Virus genome (UHGV): UHGV-0135379
DNA length: 44,739 bases
Strand: one strand, 5' to 3'
From: a virus
Shown: piece by piece, positions 1,416 through 39,918 of the stretch
Numbering within the stretch: position 1 is the stretch's first letter
How the letters are laid out: every line of letters starts with the position of its first letter
The notes under the pieces: model-generated
Seen by the model: the letters and a program-made list of their open reading frames with translations, nothing else
Told to the model about the DNA's origin: nothing
Databases searched by the model: none
Position numbers and translations under genes: made by a program

Positions 1416-1679
1416 CTATTCCAGAATATTCCTCACGTAATCCTGCAACATGAACACTTTCAGCCGCAGCTGCCGTACGCATTCAGCGTTCTGAACGTCG
1501 ATAGCTAAATCCTCGTCAGCGTCGCTACTCGGCGGTGCCAGCTTGCACGGAGGCTGCATCATCGTCGTATCCGGGGATGGAATTGGCGTTTGCGACGGCG
1601 CGGGATTTGAGCAGGACGCGAGCATCATCGAAAGTGCACACGCTGCGACCAGGCGTTTTAATGTACTTAACGACTTCAC
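1416..1679 (-). CDS. o-spanin (Rz1-like outer-membrane lipoprotein), GTG start
   Basis: Signal peptide with lipobox LASC, Pro-rich mature part, starts inside the i-spanin ORF in another frame. Confidence 0.6.
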   Translation of the reverse strand: MKSLSTLKRLVAACALSMMLASCSNPAPSQTPIPSPDTTMMQPPCKLAPPSSDADEDLAIDVQNAECVRQLRLKVFMLQDYVRNILE

Positions 1680-1911
1680 GGGTGATTACCTCGGTTTCGG
1701 TCTTGCCTTTTGAGTCGGCGGCGGCGGCCTTTGATTCGTCCTGCTGCTGCCGTTGTGTTTTCTTCGCTAACTCAGCCTGCGCTTTCTGCTGTTGCTGCGA
1801 AACGAGATTCGCCCGGCCTTCGCTCCAGCCGCTGCGATACTGGTAAATGCCGTGGGCGTAAGCCAGGATGATGAAACATGCTCCCGCTACGACAGTTGCT
1901 TTAAGATTCAT
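1525..1911 (-). CDS. i-spanin (Rz-like)
   Basis: N-terminal TM helix then charged Gln/Ala/Lys-rich periplasmic region; ATG with AGGGGA RBS; embeds o-spanin start. Confidence 0.65.
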   Translation of the reverse strand: MNLKATVVAGACFIILAYAHGIYQYRSGWSEGRANLVSQQQQKAQAELAKKTQRQQQDESKAAAADSKGKTETEVITREVVKYIKTPGRSVCTFDDARVLLKSRAVANANSIPGYDDDAASVQAGTAE

Positions 1912-2011
1912 GTTTCCCCTTTCTCGATAAGTAAAGCCCTGCCTTAAAGCAGGGCGCTAGTCCTTATCATTTAAACATAGAAACGGCGTAATCTCAGTAA
2001 ACCCGTTACTT

Positions 2012-2164
2012 TTTACACAAGCAATAGAGTATGGCCCTTCCGAACGCGTCAGCGTAACTACACTCAGGACTTACGTCCCGCTCCGTTACCTGCCCGCGCC
2101 GCGGTCGCTTGTTCATACTTCACAAGCTCAGGTGGAGCTTAGCACATTTTTGGTGAAAAGTCAA
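2012..2164 (+). repeat. Copy A of a ~150-bp non-coding element (perfect 51-bp core at 2099-2149)
   Basis: About 85% identity to 14230-14376 with a perfectly conserved core; no ORF; followed by an AT-rich tract. Confidence 0.8.
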
Positions 2165-2230
2165 CTATTCGAATAGTTTATTCCAACATTTACAATTGAG
2201 TGGAATAACCGGAATACATAAACAAATAGT

Positions 2231-2259
2231 TTGCGCACCCCAATATAATAGGGTACTAT
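2231..2259 (+). promoter_or_regulatory. Promoter TTGCGC-N17-TACTAT carrying palindrome AATAG-GGTA-CTATT (2247-2260); drives lipoprotein moron
   Basis: Near-identical 30-bp element also at 4374-4402; 17-bp spacer; about 30 nt upstream of ATG 2287. Confidence 0.6.
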
Positions 2260-2286
2260 TCATTCTATCGAACCGGGGAGGCCGTC

Positions 2287-2388
2287 ATGTTAGTCGTTAT
2301 TTCAGTAGTAATTGCAGTTGATGCGGTGATGTTTCTTTGGGCTTGTAGCGGTATTGGTGACATTGACACGGGTAATGGTGAACTATGA
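2287..2388 (+). CDS. Small hydrophobic peptide (33 aa), first gene of the lipoprotein moron
   Basis: ATG with GGGGAGG RBS directly downstream of promoter 2231-2259; stop overlaps next start (ATGA). Confidence 0.4.
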   Translation: MLVVISVVIAVDAVMFLWACSGIGDIDTGNGEL

Positions 2389-2729
2389 AATATATTAAAT
2401 TAGCAGTAGCAGGTGTTGTAGCCGTTTGTTTGAGTGGTTGTGTAAGGTCGTTGCCAGACCCGGCTTTACAGGTTTATCAGGCAGGGGATACAACGGCAAC
2501 ATGTAATCAGTTACTATCGAGAATCGCCACGACAAAACAAGCTCAAGCCAACGCTACGCACCGTGTTAATAAGCAAATAGGTACTAACGTTGTACTCGGT
2601 GTTACAGGCGCATTCCTGATTGTTCCGCTGTTCTTTATGGACACAGGCGCTGGGCCTTCTATGGACGAGATGACAGCCGGTAATCGTCTGTCGCAGTTAC
2701 AACAAACATACGACGAGAAATGCAAATGA
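2385..2729 (+). CDS. Lipoprotein of unknown function (114 aa); moron, candidate superinfection-exclusion protein
   Basis: Signal peptide with lipobox LSGC; plus-strand gene inside minus-strand late region; AT-rich. Confidence 0.7.
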   Translation: MKYIKLAVAGVVAVCLSGCVRSLPDPALQVYQAGDTTATCNQLLSRIATTKQAQANATHRVNKQIGTNVVLGVTGAFLIVPLFFMDTGAGPSMDEMTAGNRLSQLQQTYDEKCK

Positions 2730-2790
2730 CAAATAGTGTGATGTTTTATGTTGTTTTGTGGGTATCGGCTGCGGTTATCACCGCGATGTT

Positions 2791-2820
2791 CATATAAAAA
2801 TAAAGCCCCTTTCGGGGCCT
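2791..2820 (-). terminator. Rho-independent terminator after the Ig-like gene
   Basis: GC hairpin (GCCCC-TTTC-GGGGC) followed by a T-run on the minus strand. Confidence 0.55.
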
Positions 2821-2824
2821 CTTA

Positions 2825-3283
2825 TCATTCGGGCTTAATAACCTTCGCCGCTTTACTGAAGGCCTCTACGCCATCGGCATCGGTAACTTTAACGAAGTAT
2901 TCACCCACCGCGTTAACCGTCAGAGACAGAGCCTCTGCAGGGGCGTTTACCACTTCCTTACCGTCTTTGTACCAGGTCAGCGCGTATGGTGCTTTACCGG
3001 CCTTAACTTCGACAGTGATAGTCGCGCTGCCGTCTGTCAGTTCTGTGTCTTTCGGTTGTACAGAGAGATACACATCGCCTGCGTCCGCCAGATACGGAAT
3101 CTCATAGAGCATACCGGCCGCAGGCAGCGCAATGCCGGTTTTATCCGCAAACGGCATGTCGTCTACCGGTGTACCTAGTACACTTTCATCTTCAATAAAC
3201 ACCACGTTCTCACCAGAGCCAGACACGCGGGCGTACTGGACTACGCGACGCGACGGTACATCAGTTACTTTGAAAAAGCCCAT
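2825..3283 (-). CDS. Ig-like (Big-type) domain protein, probable virion accessory or decoration protein
   Basis: C-terminal Ig-like segment paralogous to 43598-43948 (shared APY..WYKD motif); ATG with AAAGGGGA RBS; terminator follows. Confidence 0.6.
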   Translation of the reverse strand: MGFFKVTDVPSRRVVQYARVSGSGENVVFIEDESVLGTPVDDMPFADKTGIALPAAGMLYEIPYLADAGDVYLSVQPKDTELTDGSATITVEVKAGKAPYALTWYKDGKEVVNAPAEALSLTVNAVGEYFVKVTDADGVEAFSKAAKVIKPE

Positions 3284-3285
3284 CG

Positions 3286-4329
3286 TTATTCCCCTTTCAG
3301 ATAATCAGCAACACGTTTATCGAGTTCCGCCATCTGCTTAAGCGTCAGCGGATTCCCGAAACCATCTACAGATATTACGCGAAACTCTTCCGGCGATATA
3401 CCGCTGTTGCGGAAAATCTTACCTCGCACCGGGCCTAGAGCCTGGTCCTGAAACCATGCAGGTTGTTGTTTCAGGAACTCGTAGTAAGTGGTGTCCGCGC
3501 TTACCTGAGTACCGCCGTCCGCACCCTTAGCCGCACGTTTCGCACCTTTATCCAGGAAGTCGAACTCTGAACTGATTACAGGCGCAGTGGTGCTTCGGCA
3601 ATTCGGGTGTGCTGGGGGCATTGGCCCTTTACCGATTTCCCACGTCATCCCGTCTCTGGCTCTGCAAATAGTACTGGTGCGGCTGTCCAGCGTTGACACC
3701 CACTCGTACTTCTCGATGATGTCGTCGTTCTGGCGGTACGTCTCGTTACGTGCTTCGTTGGACACGTGAGACAGCGCGGTGCGGATTACTGTGGCTGCGT
3801 TACGTTCAGAGATGTCTGCCAGTCCGCCAGCGCCTACGACATTTTTAACAATCTGCCGTGTTGTCTGGCCTTGCACAAAACCCATCTTAACGCCGGTTAC
3901 AAGGCGAGAGACTTCTGTTTCACCCCAGCCGTCCATCAGCTTGGTGAAGTCTACTGGTTTGTCGCTTAGCGATAATGGTTGAAACTCCGCAGCAGCCCAC
4001 ACCTGCTCGGCGGTAGGTGTGATAAATTCTGCATTAACGTTAGTTGTCAGCGTTTTTACGTTCCACTCAGCCTCATATGTCGCCAGTTCCTTAAGGTCTT
4101 CTGTCAGCTTTGTTTGCCAGTCAACTGTAAGTCCTGCCAGTGCTTCTTCGAGGTCGCGTAACATTTTATTCAGTCGCGCGGTGCTGCGACCGTCGTCACC
4201 GAATAACAGCACCTGCCGTTTGATTTCGTCCCGCATTTCCTGAATAAACGGTGCAAGGTCTTTCACTTCTCCGGAAGCGGTTCGTTGCAGCCATATCTGG
4301 TGGCTGATTAAGGATGTAAGTAAGCTCAT
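3286..4329 (-). CDS. Head morphogenesis protein (phage Mu F-like / SPP1 gp7-like minor head protein)
   Basis: Conserved STLDSRTSTICRARDG-type motif; downstream of portal; ATG at 4329 with AGGAGGG RBS (track ORF extends to a TTG at 4386). Confidence 0.8.
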   Translation of the reverse strand: MSLLTSLISHQIWLQRTASGEVKDLAPFIQEMRDEIKRQVLLFGDDGRSTARLNKMLRDLEEALAGLTVDWQTKLTEDLKELATYEAEWNVKTLTTNVNAEFITPTAEQVWAAAEFQPLSLSDKPVDFTKLMDGWGETEVSRLVTGVKMGFVQGQTTRQIVKNVVGAGGLADISERNAATVIRTALSHVSNEARNETYRQNDDIIEKYEWVSTLDSRTSTICRARDGMTWEIGKGPMPPAHPNCRSTTAPVISSEFDFLDKGAKRAAKGADGGTQVSADTTYYEFLKQQPAWFQDQALGPVRGKIFRNSGISPEEFRVISVDGFGNPLTLKQMAELDKRVADYLKGE

Positions 4330-4373
4330 AAGCCCTCCTGTAGTATCGACAGTGTAACGCATAAAAATAATAT

Positions 4374-4402
4374 TTGCAGACACCAATATAATAGGGTACT
4401 AT
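4374..4402 (+). promoter_or_regulatory. Promoter TTGCAG-N17-TACTAT with AATAG-N4-CTATT box (4390-4403); drives the 63-aa moron
   Basis: Shares a 21-bp identical core with 2242-2262; correct spacing to ATG 4431. Confidence 0.6.
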
Positions 4403-4430
4403 TCAGTTATCGGAACGAGGAGATACATAA

Positions 4431-4622
4431 ATGTTATATTCTAAAGAATGGTATGAAATCATGGAATTATTCGAGAAGAACTGCAAGGGGCGCTTCCGCT
4501 TCGATCGTGAAACAAAAGAAATGTGGAAAATTGGTGCATACTATGAGAACGGTGAATGCAACGAATGGTTTAAAATGTATCTCGCGGGGTATATGGCGGG
4601 GCGAGCAGCGTACCTTAACTAA
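4431..4622 (+). CDS. Hypothetical 63-aa protein; moron with its own promoter and terminator
   Basis: ATG with GAGGAG RBS, promoter 4374-4402 upstream, hairpin plus T-run downstream; AT-rich; inserted between portal and head gene. Confidence 0.6.
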   Translation: MLYSKEWYEIMELFEKNCKGRFRFDRETKEMWKIGAYYENGECNEWFKMYLAGYMAGRAAYLN

Positions 4623-4627
4623 AAACT

Positions 4628-4652
4628 AAGGCCCCGTTATGGGGCCTTTTCT
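4628..4652. terminator. Bidirectional terminator between the 63-aa moron and the portal gene
   Basis: Hairpin AAGGCCCC-GTTA-TGGGGCCTT flanked by T-runs on both strands. Confidence 0.6.
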
Positions 4653-6125
4653 TCACTCCTGTTGTTGCCGCGCCGACTGCGGAATTTCTCCCGCTACCTG
4701 AGCAACAGAACCCAACGGCAGAGGTGCGTCTTCAATAGCGTTCTGAATGTCCTCATCTGTCCAGTCAGTCACACCTGCCTTGCGCAACGCAGCATAGTAA
4801 GCGGTGGCGGGTAGCAGGCCAGCGTTAATATCCGCCATCCACTGAGCGCGGTCCTGAGCTGTCATAGGTTGCAGGAAGAATTCCATATTCAGCTTGAACT
4901 CAATCTCAGTATCTTCACTAAGCCCAAGCATACCCGCAACCCAGCGCAACGCATCGGTATACGCCATGCTTACATTACGTGCTATTGTTGCCATGACTGA
5001 CGTGTCGGCGCCGCGTTGCAGGCGGGCCGATTCCGCGGTGATTTGCTGCGTCGGGGTGATAAGCTGCGCGCCAATCTGGATGGCCTGATTCTCTTTATCC
5101 CGCATATTCTGTTTGGCGAGGTTAGTTTCCGCCGCCTGAACCAGAAACGCATTTCCGCCGGAGCCGATGTTGTGGCCTGAACGCGACCCCATGCGTATGC
5201 CGTGTGGGTTGGCTTCTTTCCACTGCTCCATGCTCATGTTCTCGCCGGGGGCAATGAACAGTGTCGGTTGACCTACTATAAAGCTGGCCTCTTCCACATC
5301 GGCCGAATTTCTGAAGTGTCCTATATTTAGCTCAGCTAACGGCAGTAAAGGCGCATCGTCTATAGTGGCGTCGTTGTTGCTTGCGCCAATGAACGTGAAC
5401 GGGATTTTACCGCGCAACTGTTCGCCGAGTTCCGGGAAGATTTCGATTACTTCATCCTGTGCGCCACCTTCGGCATCGAAGCGGTAGATGCGCTGGCGGT
5501 AGCGACCGTCAATCAGGTCAAGGACGCGGTATTGCTCGCCGAATTTTGTTTCAAACTCAGCGCCTGGTTCCGAGTATTCCCATGCCTCACGCAATACAAC
5601 CATCGTCACGCGGTTCACTGAACCGATGCGGGTGAGTCTCCAGTTGATAATGTTCTCCGCGGTATAGAATGCGATTACCGGGTTTAATAATCCCGCGTTC
5701 TGCTCTGCCGCCGTTGCTGCGGCTGTTTCCGGGGCGTCCACCAGCAACCCGCCACGGCCTATCGAGTTAATCTCCATCAGCGTATCCTGCGCGTGCTGCC
5801 ACAGCCCGACACCTGAACCGTCAGCGTTGTGCAACAGGTACTCAAGTTCAGGCGGGATAATCTGCTCAGGGTCTTTGCGCATCACTGACCCCGTCATCCC
5901 CGCCAGCGTGCGTTTGGTGAAATTGTAGCAGATAGCGCCGTTCTCGTATTCTTCCTGTCGCTGTGCTGCGTAGGTCTGGTCAGGCTCGTTCTTCCCGACG
6001 TTGCGCAGATAGCGGATAAGGTCGCCTTCAAGAGCGTGGCGTACCTTCTGCCATTTATCGAAGTGATGCAGCCATTCCCGGTGTTTTGTCTTAACACCCT
6101 GATTCTGACCGTTCATAGTTAACAT
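4653..6125 (-). CDS. Portal protein
   Basis: 490 aa, directly downstream of terminase large subunit; ATG with AGAGGA RBS. Confidence 0.8.
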   Translation of the reverse strand: MLTMNGQNQGVKTKHREWLHHFDKWQKVRHALEGDLIRYLRNVGKNEPDQTYAAQRQEEYENGAICYNFTKRTLAGMTGSVMRKDPEQIIPPELEYLLHNADGSGVGLWQHAQDTLMEINSIGRGGLLVDAPETAAATAAEQNAGLLNPVIAFYTAENIINWRLTRIGSVNRVTMVVLREAWEYSEPGAEFETKFGEQYRVLDLIDGRYRQRIYRFDAEGGAQDEVIEIFPELGEQLRGKIPFTFIGASNNDATIDDAPLLPLAELNIGHFRNSADVEEASFIVGQPTLFIAPGENMSMEQWKEANPHGIRMGSRSGHNIGSGGNAFLVQAAETNLAKQNMRDKENQAIQIGAQLITPTQQITAESARLQRGADTSVMATIARNVSMAYTDALRWVAGMLGLSEDTEIEFKLNMEFFLQPMTAQDRAQWMADINAGLLPATAYYAALRKAGVTDWTDEDIQNAIEDAPLPLGSVAQVAGEIPQSARQQQE

Positions 6126-12858: not shown

Positions 12859-12889
12859 CTTCTGTCTCTCCTCTTGTTTGTGTAAATGA

Positions 12890-13065: not shown

Positions 13066-13251
13066 TCACACCTCCGGCGGCTCAGGTAACGGCATCCAGT
13101 GCGTTATATCACCGTGATATAAACTCTTTGCGGGCCCCCAGTAGCCATCTGAATTAACACGCATAACCTCACAGCCAACAAAACAATCAGTTACAAGAAC
13201 GTATTCATAAGGCTCCGGCATCCGCTCACTACACTTAATCCACTTGCTCAT
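13066..13251 (-). CDS. Hypothetical Cys-containing protein (61 aa)
   Basis: ATG overlaps upstream stop (ATGA); hairpin terminator downstream. Confidence 0.5.
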   Translation of the reverse strand: MSKWIKCSERMPEPYEYVLVTDCFVGCEVMRVNSDGYWGPAKSLYHGDITHWMPLPEPPEV

Positions 13252-14004: not shown

Positions 14005-14038
14005 AACCATCACTCCTCTGTCTCGTTCCGATAAGTGA

Positions 14039-14229: not shown

Positions 14230-14376
14230 TTTACAATAGATTATGGCCCTTCCGAATGCCGGCAGCGACACTACACTCAGTGCTGACGCACCGCTCCGTT
14301 TCCTGCCGCACCGCGGTCGCTTGTTCATACTTCACAAGCTCAGGTGGAGCTTAGCACATTTCTTAGTAAAAGTCAA
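14230..14376 (+). repeat. Copy B of the ~150-bp non-coding element (perfect 51-bp core at 14311-14361)
   Basis: Same orientation as copy A; lies in the 470-bp divergent early intergenic region. Confidence 0.8.
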
Positions 14377-14423
14377 TACCATTAGCATCTTTTGTATATT
14401 AGTAACTTTGTGTGGTGTTTTGG

Positions 14424-14452
14424 TTGCTTTTACATTCACGCTATCCTATACT
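14424..14452 (+). promoter_or_regulatory. Candidate rightward early promoter TTGCTT-N17-TATACT
   Basis: AT-rich region, 17-bp spacer, about 30 nt upstream of ATG 14484; no palindromic box. Confidence 0.4.
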
Positions 14453-14483
14453 CGTTTTCACCAAACAAACAGGAGATATAAAA

Positions 14484-14666
14484 ATGCAGCATTACATGAC
14501 ACAGAATGAAGTGGCTGAACGTATCGGGGTGACACGTCAAACAATTAATAACTGGTTGCGCAGCGGTAAATTCCCTGATTGCTGTATTAAGGTTATGGGT
14601 CGCCGTTTACCAGGAACATTTGACCGTAATAAAGTTGAAGCATGGATTAAGGAGAACGTGAAATGA
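14484..14666 (+). CDS. Small HTH DNA-binding protein (AlpA/excisionase-like fold), 60 aa
   Basis: Motif RIGVTRQTINNW; ATG with AGGAGA RBS; first gene of the rightward replication block. Confidence 0.6.
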   Translation: MQHYMTQNEVAERIGVTRQTINNWLRSGKFPDCCIKVMGRRLPGTFDRNKVEAWIKENVK

Positions 14667-17632: not shown

Positions 17633-17656
17633 AAAGAAAGGGGCTTTAAGCCCCTT
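17630..17656 (-). terminator. Terminator hairpin overlapping the end of the Cro-like regulator gene
   Basis: Stem AGGGGCTT/AAGCCCCT followed by TCTTTTT on the minus strand; no T-run on the plus strand. Confidence 0.5.
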
Positions 17657-17861
17657 CACCTAACGCCAGCCACTTGGCGTCTACTTCCAGAACTTCCGCC
17701 AGTTTGAACAGCGTTGCCGGGCGGACGTCCTGAGTTACTCCAAGTGCCAGTTGGTTAATCGCGCCCTGGGAAACGCCGGTCAGGGCCGCCAAACGGCGCT
17801 GGGAGATGCCGAGTTCTTTACGGCGTTGTTCTACACGGATACCTAGTTCAGATGGTTGCAT
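17646..17861 (-). CDS. XRE-family HTH regulator (Cro/CI-like, 71 aa)
   Basis: Motif QRRLAALTGVSQGAINQL; transcribed divergently from the rightward genes across an operator-bearing promoter region. Confidence 0.8.
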   Translation of the reverse strand: MQPSELGIRVEQRRKELGISQRRLAALTGVSQGAINQLALGVTQDVRPATLFKLAEVLEVDAKWLALGEGA

Positions 17862-17891
17862 GTCAATTACTCCTTAGTCAGTTGATATGTG

Positions 17892-17905
17892 AATAGTACC
17901 ATATT
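17892..17905. promoter_or_regulatory. Degenerate operator copy (AATAG-TACC-ATATT) next to the start of the Cro-like regulator gene
   Basis: One intact half-site; lies 30 nt from the regulator ATG at 17861 and 30 nt from the operator at 17936-17949. Confidence 0.4.
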
Positions 17906-17925
17906 AATTATTTTAGAAAAGCCCA

Positions 17926-17954
17926 TTGACATGTGAATAGTTCGCTATTATAGT
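17926..17954 (+). promoter_or_regulatory. Strong rightward promoter TTGACA-N17-TATAGT with AATAG-TTCG-CTATT operator in the spacer
   Basis: Consensus -35, 17-bp spacer, 5/6 -10; divergent to the regulator gene; RBS and ATG 17983 downstream. Confidence 0.7.
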
Positions 17955-17982
17955 TAGCCCATACCAAACGAGAGGGGCGGAT

Positions 17983-27333: not shown

Positions 27334-27337
27334 AGAA

Positions 27338-27366
27338 AAGGCCCCGTTTGGGGCCTTAGTTTTAAG
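27338..27366. terminator. Bidirectional terminator between the replication block and the tailspike gene
   Basis: Hairpin AAGGCCCC-GTTT-GGGGCCTT with T-rich flanks on both strands; convergent genes. Confidence 0.6.
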
Positions 27367-37309: not shown

Positions 37310-37416
37310 TCTTTAATCCTTTGGTTAAGAGGTTACTGGTTAAAGGAAATGCGCCAGACGGGAACCACCCGCTTTTCGTGTGCGACACTAGGCGCAAAAT
37401 TATTCTAACATACTAC

Positions 37417-37445
37417 TTGCACACCCTGATATAATAGCGTACTAT
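37417..37445 (+). promoter_or_regulatory. Promoter TTGCAC-N17-TACTAT with AATAG-CGTA-CTATT box (37433-37446); drives the 4-gene plus-strand island
   Basis: Same architecture as the moron and leftward early promoters; about 40 nt upstream of ATG 37488. Confidence 0.6.
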
Positions 37446-37487
37446 TCACTTACACCAACGATGTTATCTCAAATCAGGAGTTATGTT

Positions 37488-37679
37488 ATGACCGGTATCG
37501 CTATGTTCTTTTTAATTATTGTTGTAGGCGTTTATTTTATCCCGTTTTTTGTGGCCCATATGCGAAACCATAAAGCAAAGCTAGCGATATTCATGGCTAA
37601 CTTATTTCTCGGGTGGGTTCTGTTGCCGTGGGTATTCATTTTAATCTGGGCTTGTAACTCGAACGTGAAAGAGAAGTAG
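37488..37679 (+). CDS. Small 2-TM membrane protein resembling superinfection-immunity (Imm-type) proteins
   Basis: 63 aa from ATG at 37488 (AGGAG RBS); motif FIPFFVAHMRNH...LGW...ILIWAC; AT-rich; track ORF starts at 37461. Confidence 0.55.
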   Translation: MTGIAMFFLIIVVGVYFIPFFVAHMRNHKAKLAIFMANLFLGWVLLPWVFILIWACNSNVKEK

Positions 37680-39887: not shown

Positions 39888-39918
39888 GAAAAAGGCCCCG
39901 AAAGGGGCCTTAGTTTTA
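39886..39918. terminator. Bidirectional terminator between the plus-strand island and the major tail gene
   Basis: Hairpin AAGGCCCC-GAAA-GGGGCCTT, T-runs on both strands; convergent genes. Confidence 0.65.

Follow-up and report, generated by a model that had tools for sequence, protein, structure and literature searches.

A swappable accessory-gene cassette encoding an uncharacterised 63-residue protein in a hypervariable slot of a Kagunavirus-like phage

Why should the packaging operon of a phage be interrupted by one small gene on the opposite strand, flanked by signals of its own? The question is raised by positions 4374-4652 of the viral genome UHGV-0135379, whose whole analysed stretch of 44,739 nucleotides is called the window here. 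The window phage is a Kagunavirus-like (Guernseyvirinae) E. coli siphophage. A first-pass annotation of this region had described a moron between the portal and head morphogenesis genes, with a promoter and terminator of its own. We find that 4373-4652 is a self-contained, swappable accessory-gene cassette in a hypervariable slot. We describe below its gene and signals, its exchange among relatives, and the role that its product may play.

The 63-aa gene and the signals around it

The accessory gene (4431..4622, plus strand, ATG start) encodes 63 amino acids and is the single ORF between a promoter-like element and a hairpin. Both of its neighbors lie on the minus strand, as the first-pass annotation had stated: to the left a head morphogenesis gene of the Mu-F/SPP1-gp7 type, hereafter Mu-F-like (3286..4329, minus, with its ATG at 4329; PF04233 E=2e-13, phrog_241 E=3e-154), and to the right the portal gene (4653..6125, minus; DUF4055; PF13264 E=4e-25, phrog_145 E=5e-147). 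The window composition bore out the reported AT-richness, with a GC content of 0.38-0.40 across 4300-4600 against 0.50-0.58 on both sides. Direct reading placed an RBS, GAGGAG (4417..4422, plus), 8 nt 5' of the ATG, and agreed with the earlier description of the product, MLYSKEWYEIMELFEKNCKGRFRFDRETKEMWKIGAYYENGECNEWFKMYLAGYMAGRAAYLN, as rich in aromatic residues (14 of 63), with two Cys and without a hydrophobic segment of the length that a TM helix needs. The nearest copy of the gene, in phage vB_EcoM_SHAK7693 (SHAK7693), differs at 24 nt, 22 of them synonymous and 2 non-synonymous, and pairwise dN/dS values for the gene were 0.007-0.065. An overlapping alternative frame of 58 codons is not conserved, having lost its start or gained a stop in relatives. 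By these data the 63-aa ORF is a genuine gene on which purifying selection acts strongly, and relatives do not keep the region as a non-coding stretch; the first-pass annotation had named an unconserved ORF as what would count against its reading.

Upstream of the gene we recognized, from sequence only, a putative promoter that we term class A (4374..4402, plus), consisting of a -35 element TTGCAG (4374-4379), a 17-nt spacer and a -10 element TACTAT (4397-4402). It is weak compared with the consensus (3/6 at -35 and 4/6 at -10), and a generic consensus scan did not pick it, instead picking TCGACA-16-TAATAT at 4346-4373. This alternative promoter-like element is held by the leader that precedes the cassette (4330..4372, plus). 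The cassette promoter is one copy of a 55-nt motif that repeats at 2221-2275, 4364-4418 and 37407-37461 and, inverted, at 12889 and 14038; all five copies in the window share TTGC(A/G)(C/G), a 17-nt spacer and an invariant TACTAT, with an RBS and start codon 25-40 nt downstream. The other two plus-strand copies precede a T4 Imm-like superinfection immunity gene (PF14373, E=2e-13) and a lipoprotein cassette. The Imm-type gene (37461..37679) lies behind the copy at 37407-37461, and directly upstream of that promoter is an Rfam match to int-alpA sRNA (37334-37398, minus; 36.6 bits, only slightly over the gathering score of 35.8; E=5e-4).

Overlapping the -10 element of the cassette is a palindrome, AATAGGGTACTATT (AATAG-N4-CTATT; 4390..4403), which may be an operator. 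The pattern has eight exact matches in the window, where 0.04 would be expected, and all of them fall in promoter-like intergenic regions (2247, 4390, 12889, 14038, 17936, 20688, 25014 and 37433). Three further promoters, class B, have near-consensus TTGACA-17-TATAGT with the palindrome in the spacer, and they precede the genes for an Enc34-type SSB, DNA polymerase A (PolA) and an SNF2 helicase, together with neighboring genes. Because the palindrome is thus common to the promoters of replication and leftward early genes, the 63-aa gene is probably expressed early, and the cassette appears to belong to a non-structural, early-type regulon. The gene for a 71-aa HTH_3 protein (17646..17861, minus) adjoins a double site at 17882-17955, and we consider this protein a candidate binder of AATAG-N4-CTATT; the palindrome could also be part of the promoter signature and not a binding site for a regulator. 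By analogy with class B we looked in the palindrome region for a minus-strand promoter that would serve the Mu-F-like gene, where the -35 is poor (CCGATA) and the scan picked no such promoter. The accessible portion of a Kagunavirus transcriptome report (PMC12645636) calls one doubtful ORF in the slot between portal and Mu-F genes and assigns it no temporal class.

At the other end of the gene is the hairpin AAGGCCCC-GTTAT-GGGGCCTT (4628-4648; 4628..4655 with its U-rich tails), which has an 8-bp stem with 6 G-C pairs and stops 4 nt short of the portal stop codon (4653-4655). Read as plus-strand RNA it folds at -15.4 kcal/mol (z = -3.0), and as minus-strand RNA at -19.4 kcal/mol (z = -4.4); a U-rich tail follows in either direction, and a terminator scan calls it as a minus-strand terminator. 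Hairpins of the type AAAGGCCCC-loop-GGGGCCTT, flanked by A- and T-runs, are also found at 27337-27357 and 39891-39911, both of which are junctions where plus- and minus-strand genes converge. Their recurrence at convergent junctions indicates that a bidirectional terminator module of this type is standard in the genome. The cassette hairpin is therefore a likely bidirectional terminator, and at the level of sequence this part of the first-pass annotation stands, with the qualification, developed below, that the hairpin belongs to the slot.

Exchange of cargo at two slots

The gap between the portal and Mu-F-like genes, which we call slot 1, was extracted from a dozen genomes for comparison. 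In most relatives, including 590B, NTEC3, Bas70-76, K1ind2 and many others, the slot is empty and the two flanking genes are separated by 69 nt, so that the slot-1 region spans 2591 nt when empty and 2836 nt in the window. Other relatives carry varied inserts, and the presence-or-absence comparison suggested by the first-pass annotation thus came out as expected of an inserted element. In every occupied slot the first ~80 nt past the Mu-F start are near-identical (CCCTCCTGTAGTATCGCCAGTGTAACGCATAAAAATAATATTTGCAGACACCAATATAATAGGGTACTATTCAGTTA), the leader included, whatever the cargo; all the extracted occupied slots end with a hairpin of the GGCCCC/GGGGCC type; and the cargo is in every case encoded on the plus strand, opposite to the structural operon. 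The empty slot of 590B retains a copy of the palindrome matching at 13 of 14 positions, AATAGCATACTAT, directly against the hairpin.

At this position we found six types of cargo in addition to the empty state. The 63-aa gene occupies slot 1 in the window and in one ENA contig (L006). A gene for a 173-aa, beta-clamp-like protein (phrog_3007) takes its place in phage 26, SHAK7693 and NRG857CP3, and one of 94 aa (phrog_1273) in K-02. UTEC10 carries genes of 53 aa (DUF7170) and 121 aa, while phiWAO78-1 and SXAU_B4 carry genes of 64 and 79 (and 102) aa. The position is taken in SZH-1 and phiSD1 by a 55-aa gene (phrog_35937); the comparison of promoter and hairpin covers the other five types. The breakpoints between cargo types fall after TATTCAGTTA, at the RBS and at the stop codon. 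The promoter and the hairpin are constant parts of the slot and are not private to the 63-aa gene. The claim that the gene has its own operator promoter therefore holds for the existence of a promoter-like element with a palindrome, and fails for its ownership, the element being common to the cargoes of the slot.

Two further observations concern genes at this locus. The 173-aa cargo (L003 1732-2253, L001 5325-5846, L015 1141-1662 and L075 763-1284) matches phrog_3007 at E=5e-37 and, weakly, a single beta-clamp domain (Pfam E=0.005); its public annotations are inconsistent ('DNA polymerase III', 'sliding clamp', 'RusA-like resolvase') and probably wrong. In some relatives the Mu-F-like head gene is ~800 nt larger (L016 1-1856, from GZMU_E2010; KMB36), and the enlarged gene of KMB36 is annotated 'minor head protein with inserted intein'.

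The 63-aa gene is also found elsewhere. In SHAK7693, whose slot 1 holds the 173-aa gene, the 63-aa gene lies on the plus strand between a Hoc-like decoration gene and the spanin genes, with its class A promoter kept at this other site. The DNA common to the window and this second site runs from ~4373, at the -35 element, to 4652, at the hairpin, a near-exact match to the boundaries of 4374-4652 drawn by the first-pass annotation. The corresponding slot 2 of the window (1912-2824) lies between an Rz-like spanin gene (1525..1911, minus) and a Hoc-like gene (2825..3283, minus). It contains a class A promoter in the form of a 55-nt motif copy (2221-2275, plus), a 114-aa lipoprotein gene (phrog_13472; 2385..2729, plus) flanked by two small membrane peptides, hydrophobic products of 33 aa (ATG at 2287) and 23 aa (~2729-2800), and a hairpin at ~2806-2822. 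Slot 2 is as variable among relatives as slot 1. The 173-aa gene occupies slot 1 in phage 26 and SHAK7693 and slot 2 in XY2, so that the 63-aa and 173-aa genes have each been found in both slots.

How closely the exchanges approach the genes can be read from the 5'UTRs: each of two variants, TCGRAACGAGGAG and AAMTTAAACAGGAG, stands in front of several unlike ORFs, which places crossovers as close as the RBS itself. In a diverged relative the slot-1 63-aa protein is 84% identical in amino acid sequence, compared with 64% for the portal and 63% for the Mu-F-like protein, a difference that fits either transfer of the cargo or unusually strong constraint upon it. We also noted a direct repeat of ~143 nt with 81-92% identity (2022-2164 and 14234-14376). 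One copy lies upstream of the slot-2 promoter and the other at the start of an ORF (14243..14509) beside the class A promoter at 14038, and the repeat may be a scar left by recombination, or else a regulatory or RNA element common to the two places.

The 63-aa protein family and its possible role

As the first-pass annotation had reported, the product is not recognized: scans of the 63-aa protein and 75 family members against Pfam, PHROGs v4, NCBIfam and PADLOC returned only noise. Relatives of the protein are nevertheless numerous. Pseudomonas phage IME307 encodes a homologue with 44% identity, which as a query found 83 relatives, and a family profile built from 75 sequences and searched against 1.84 billion cluster representatives (clusters at 50% identity) matched 495 representatives at E<=1e-3 and 276 at E<=1e-10. 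The homologues come from viral contigs and prophage-like regions assigned to Pseudomonas, Rhizobiaceae, Brevundimonas, Denitrobaculum and others. The family is thus widespread in phages and present in none of the family libraries tested. A tblastn search of the protein against plasmids gave only noise, and a full-text literature search with peptide strings from the family gave zero matches.

We used AlphaFold2 with the family alignment to model the protein, and the small fold that it returned is a highly confident prediction (pLDDT 97, pTM 0.83). The predicted fold consists of a helix (residues 5-17), a short beta-bridged hairpin and a second helix (41-62), and most of the invariant polar residues (R23, D25, E27, K29 and W32) sit on the beta-bridged hairpin of the model. 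Invariant positions of the protein include F14, R23, E27, W32, N44, F47 and G53. The two Cys are replaced in homologues and so are not functionally required. The structure prediction proposed with the original annotation therefore gave a confident model, but one with no fold relative: Foldseek searches of the PDB and BFVD reached a best E of 2-7 with TM-scores of 0.3-0.5, which is not meaningful, and a sequence-profile search of the PDB found nothing at E<=10. Longer homologues were scanned for domain fusions and gave one HTH_31 match and one weak DUF551 match; their C-terminal extensions are otherwise mutually unrelated, and some may be gene-calling artefacts. DUF551 also occurs in a protein of the leftward early region of the window (13066..13251, minus; E=1e-15), as a weak DUF551-like C-terminus fused to the 63-aa family in a distant homologue (P0189), and in a weakly matching gene near a homologue in Denitrobaculum (L022).

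The surroundings of the homologues bear on what the protein may do. In temperate phages, homologues are found in stretches of small early genes. Those of IME307 and of a Pseudomonas prophage follow closely downstream of an S24 repressor gene on the same strand, and others lie near ERF/YqaJ, near RecT/SSB and near an Acb2/Tad1-like gene. Clustering of the ORFs within 2.5 kb across 47 loci revealed no conserved partner gene. The best neighbor cluster, of HNH endonucleases, was present at 7 of the 47 loci in variable positions, and NinG-like, methylase and terminase genes at 4-5 loci. These contexts, the lack of a steady neighbor and the unrelated extensions point to a stand-alone, dispensable, cytoplasmic early protein with a wide host range. 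Our best guess, from guilt by association only, is that it is a binding protein for host takeover or counter-defence.

Together, these data lead us to propose the following. Host sigma-70 RNA polymerase would read the cassette from TTGCAG-17-TACTAT, starting near 4409, and transcription would stop at the hairpin, so that almost no antisense RNA would be made over the late genes. The 63-aa gene would probably be expressed with the early, non-structural genes, under the control of the same phage DNA-binding protein that governs the replication and leftward early genes, possibly the 71-aa HTH_3 protein. Cargo would be swapped by homologous recombination in the common promoter/RBS and hairpin sequences. 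The 63-aa product would be non-essential and cytoplasmic, and it would most likely bind a conserved component of the host or of its defences one-to-one; this last step is the weakest. Taken whole, the explanation of an exchangeable early accessory cassette with recombination-swapped cargo, whose product serves host takeover or counter-defence, is one that we hold to be probable, with moderate confidence. A bolder version is offered only tentatively and is rather doubtful: that the protein has a new fold and founds a new counter-defence or host-takeover family across phages of Enterobacteria, Pseudomonas and Alphaproteobacteria, carried as ORF-precise cargo between 'expression sockets' that would each combine an early promoter under operator control with a bidirectional hairpin, resemble the PeSL elements of T4-type phages (see below) and lie antisense in the Kagunavirus late operon.

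The main rival to host takeover or counter-defence is a part in superinfection exclusion or inter-phage competition, with the protein as an effector that acts in the infected cell on co-infecting phages. Like our preferred reading it draws on association: the other two plus-strand class A cassettes encode the Imm-like protein and the lipoprotein with its small membrane peptides. In lambdoid phages the exclusion genes come a short way after the repressor, the very position of the homologues in IME307 and the Pseudomonas prophage. The 63-aa protein, however, differs from exclusion proteins of the Imm and Cor types in lacking a signal peptide or membrane segment; most homologues are found in early lytic operons beside recombination genes and not by a repressor; and PADLOC gives no match. 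We consider a role in exclusion unlikely.

Less likely still is that the slot acts mainly in cis, with the hairpin, and perhaps a regulator bound at the palindrome, setting late transcription from portal to Mu-F and the cargo ORF being a passenger of little value. The empty slots, which keep the palindrome copy against the hairpin, would be accounted for in this way, as would the better folding of the hairpin on the minus strand, where it has a U-rich tail and is called by the terminator scan. Such a role leaves unexplained the strong purifying selection on the cargo and the conservation of its family across phages of distant hosts, and we judge it improbable as the main function; a cis role and a function of the cargo are not mutually exclusive.

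Two other functions are very improbable. A factor for head assembly or packaging is suggested by position only and is effectively refuted: the gene runs against the strand of its neighbors, most relatives lack it, SHAK7693 has it at another site, and unrelated genes take the same slot, while its homologues are found in early regions of temperate phages. That the 63-aa protein itself binds AATAG-N4-CTATT, in an Aca-like autoregulation, would suit the overlap of the palindrome with the gene's own -10 element. We rejected this reading since relatives without the gene keep the palindrome promoter with other cargo, since even the cargo-less 590B keeps its near-complete copy, and since a DNA-binding fold is neither predicted nor matched; the HTH_3 protein encoded beside the double site is the better candidate. 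Finally, the notion that the ORF arose by chance within an AT-rich intergenic spacer, prompted by its shortness and its lack of a match in catalogued families, has a negligible probability and is ruled out by dN/dS values of at most 0.065, the 495 profile matches, the pLDDT of 97 and the RBS 8 nt 5' of the start.

The slot and the family have several uses. Variable slots of such a kind hold phage genes for counter-defence, exclusion and host takeover, and the sharp borders of this one, with at least six alternative cargoes, narrow the candidates for screening to a handful within one small phage. The family is large (495 clusters), well folded according to its model, and uncatalogued, so that one phenotype would supply an annotation for hundreds of phage genes. 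In addition, the constant promoter and hairpin amount to a natural, tolerated site for inserting a payload in these phages. Kagunavirus isolates, including BASEL phages Bas70-76, whose slot is empty, have been called attractive models for synthetic biology (PMC11990801).

Comparison with known systems

A cassette of this kind is in itself already known and ordinary; it is the family of the protein it carries that is uncharacterised. We compared the cassette with three known arrangements. In Mu-like Pseudomonas phages, acr-aca loci place small accessory genes behind an inverted-repeat promoter among the head-morphogenesis genes, with variable content. The cassette is similar in being a small accessory gene among head genes, with a promoter-like element that bears an inverted repeat and a variable presence in relatives. 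It differs in having a single ORF with no aca-type HTH gene downstream, in being antisense, and in encoding a protein that lacks sequence or fold similarity to solved proteins. As no regulator gene follows the ORF, the cassette is not an acr-aca locus.

Morons have been defined as extra DNA with its own promoter and terminator and a deviating GC content (Juhala/Hendrix; Cumby, Davidson and Maxwell 2012, PMC3594210). The cassette resembles lambdoid morons of the HK97 gene 15 type in being extra DNA, of odd GC content and with a promoter-like element and a predicted terminator, between genes of a virion operon that are adjacent in relatives. Unlike lambdoid morons, it is antisense to the operon, and its promoter and terminator are constant in the slot and common to unrelated cargo. 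A further difference lies in the life style of the phage. Kagunavirus isolates are described as lytic in the accessible parts of the reports concerned (e.g. PMC12919940, PMC7203180), and in a blastn search against 5,426 complete E. coli genomes the cassette and the portal/Mu-F region both went unmatched, so that no prophage relatives turned up among them. With a lytic phage and no match in those E. coli genomes, the classical picture, in which a prophage expresses the moron, does not apply. The term used in the first-pass annotation is therefore supported in its structural sense only, that of an insertion with deviating GC content, a terminator and a promoter-like element.

The closest mechanistic analogue is found in the PeSL (promoter-early stem-loop) cassettes of T4-type phages, in which repeated early promoters and stem-loops flank ORFans and, through recombination, bring about their gain, loss and exchange (Arbiol et al. 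2010, PMC2839356; see also PMC4122927). The PeSL set is characterized by its place in the hyperplastic regions of T4-type myoviruses and by the formation of mini-circles. In both systems a repeated, sigma-70-like early promoter motif and a G+C stem-loop surround non-essential ORFans; insertions, deletions and replacements among close relatives occur exactly at the motifs, and the motif ends at the Shine-Dalgarno sequence. In both, a few of the elements lie inside virion modules. The empty slots here have a remnant of the -10 element and palindrome directly beside the hairpin, comparable to the single fused promoter and stem-loop of PeSL sites. The differences are that the host of the cassette is a siphovirus of the Guernseyvirinae and not a T4-type myovirus, that it has few slots compared with ~50 motifs, that in its occupied slots promoter and stem-loop are kept apart by the whole length of the cargo, and that the promoter carries a palindromic putative operator. 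By this analogy the cassette would be PeSL-like in its working, and it lies outside that set. If the bolder version proposed above is true, the modular exchange of cassettes in sockets extends beyond the T4-type myoviruses that have so far been its main described setting.
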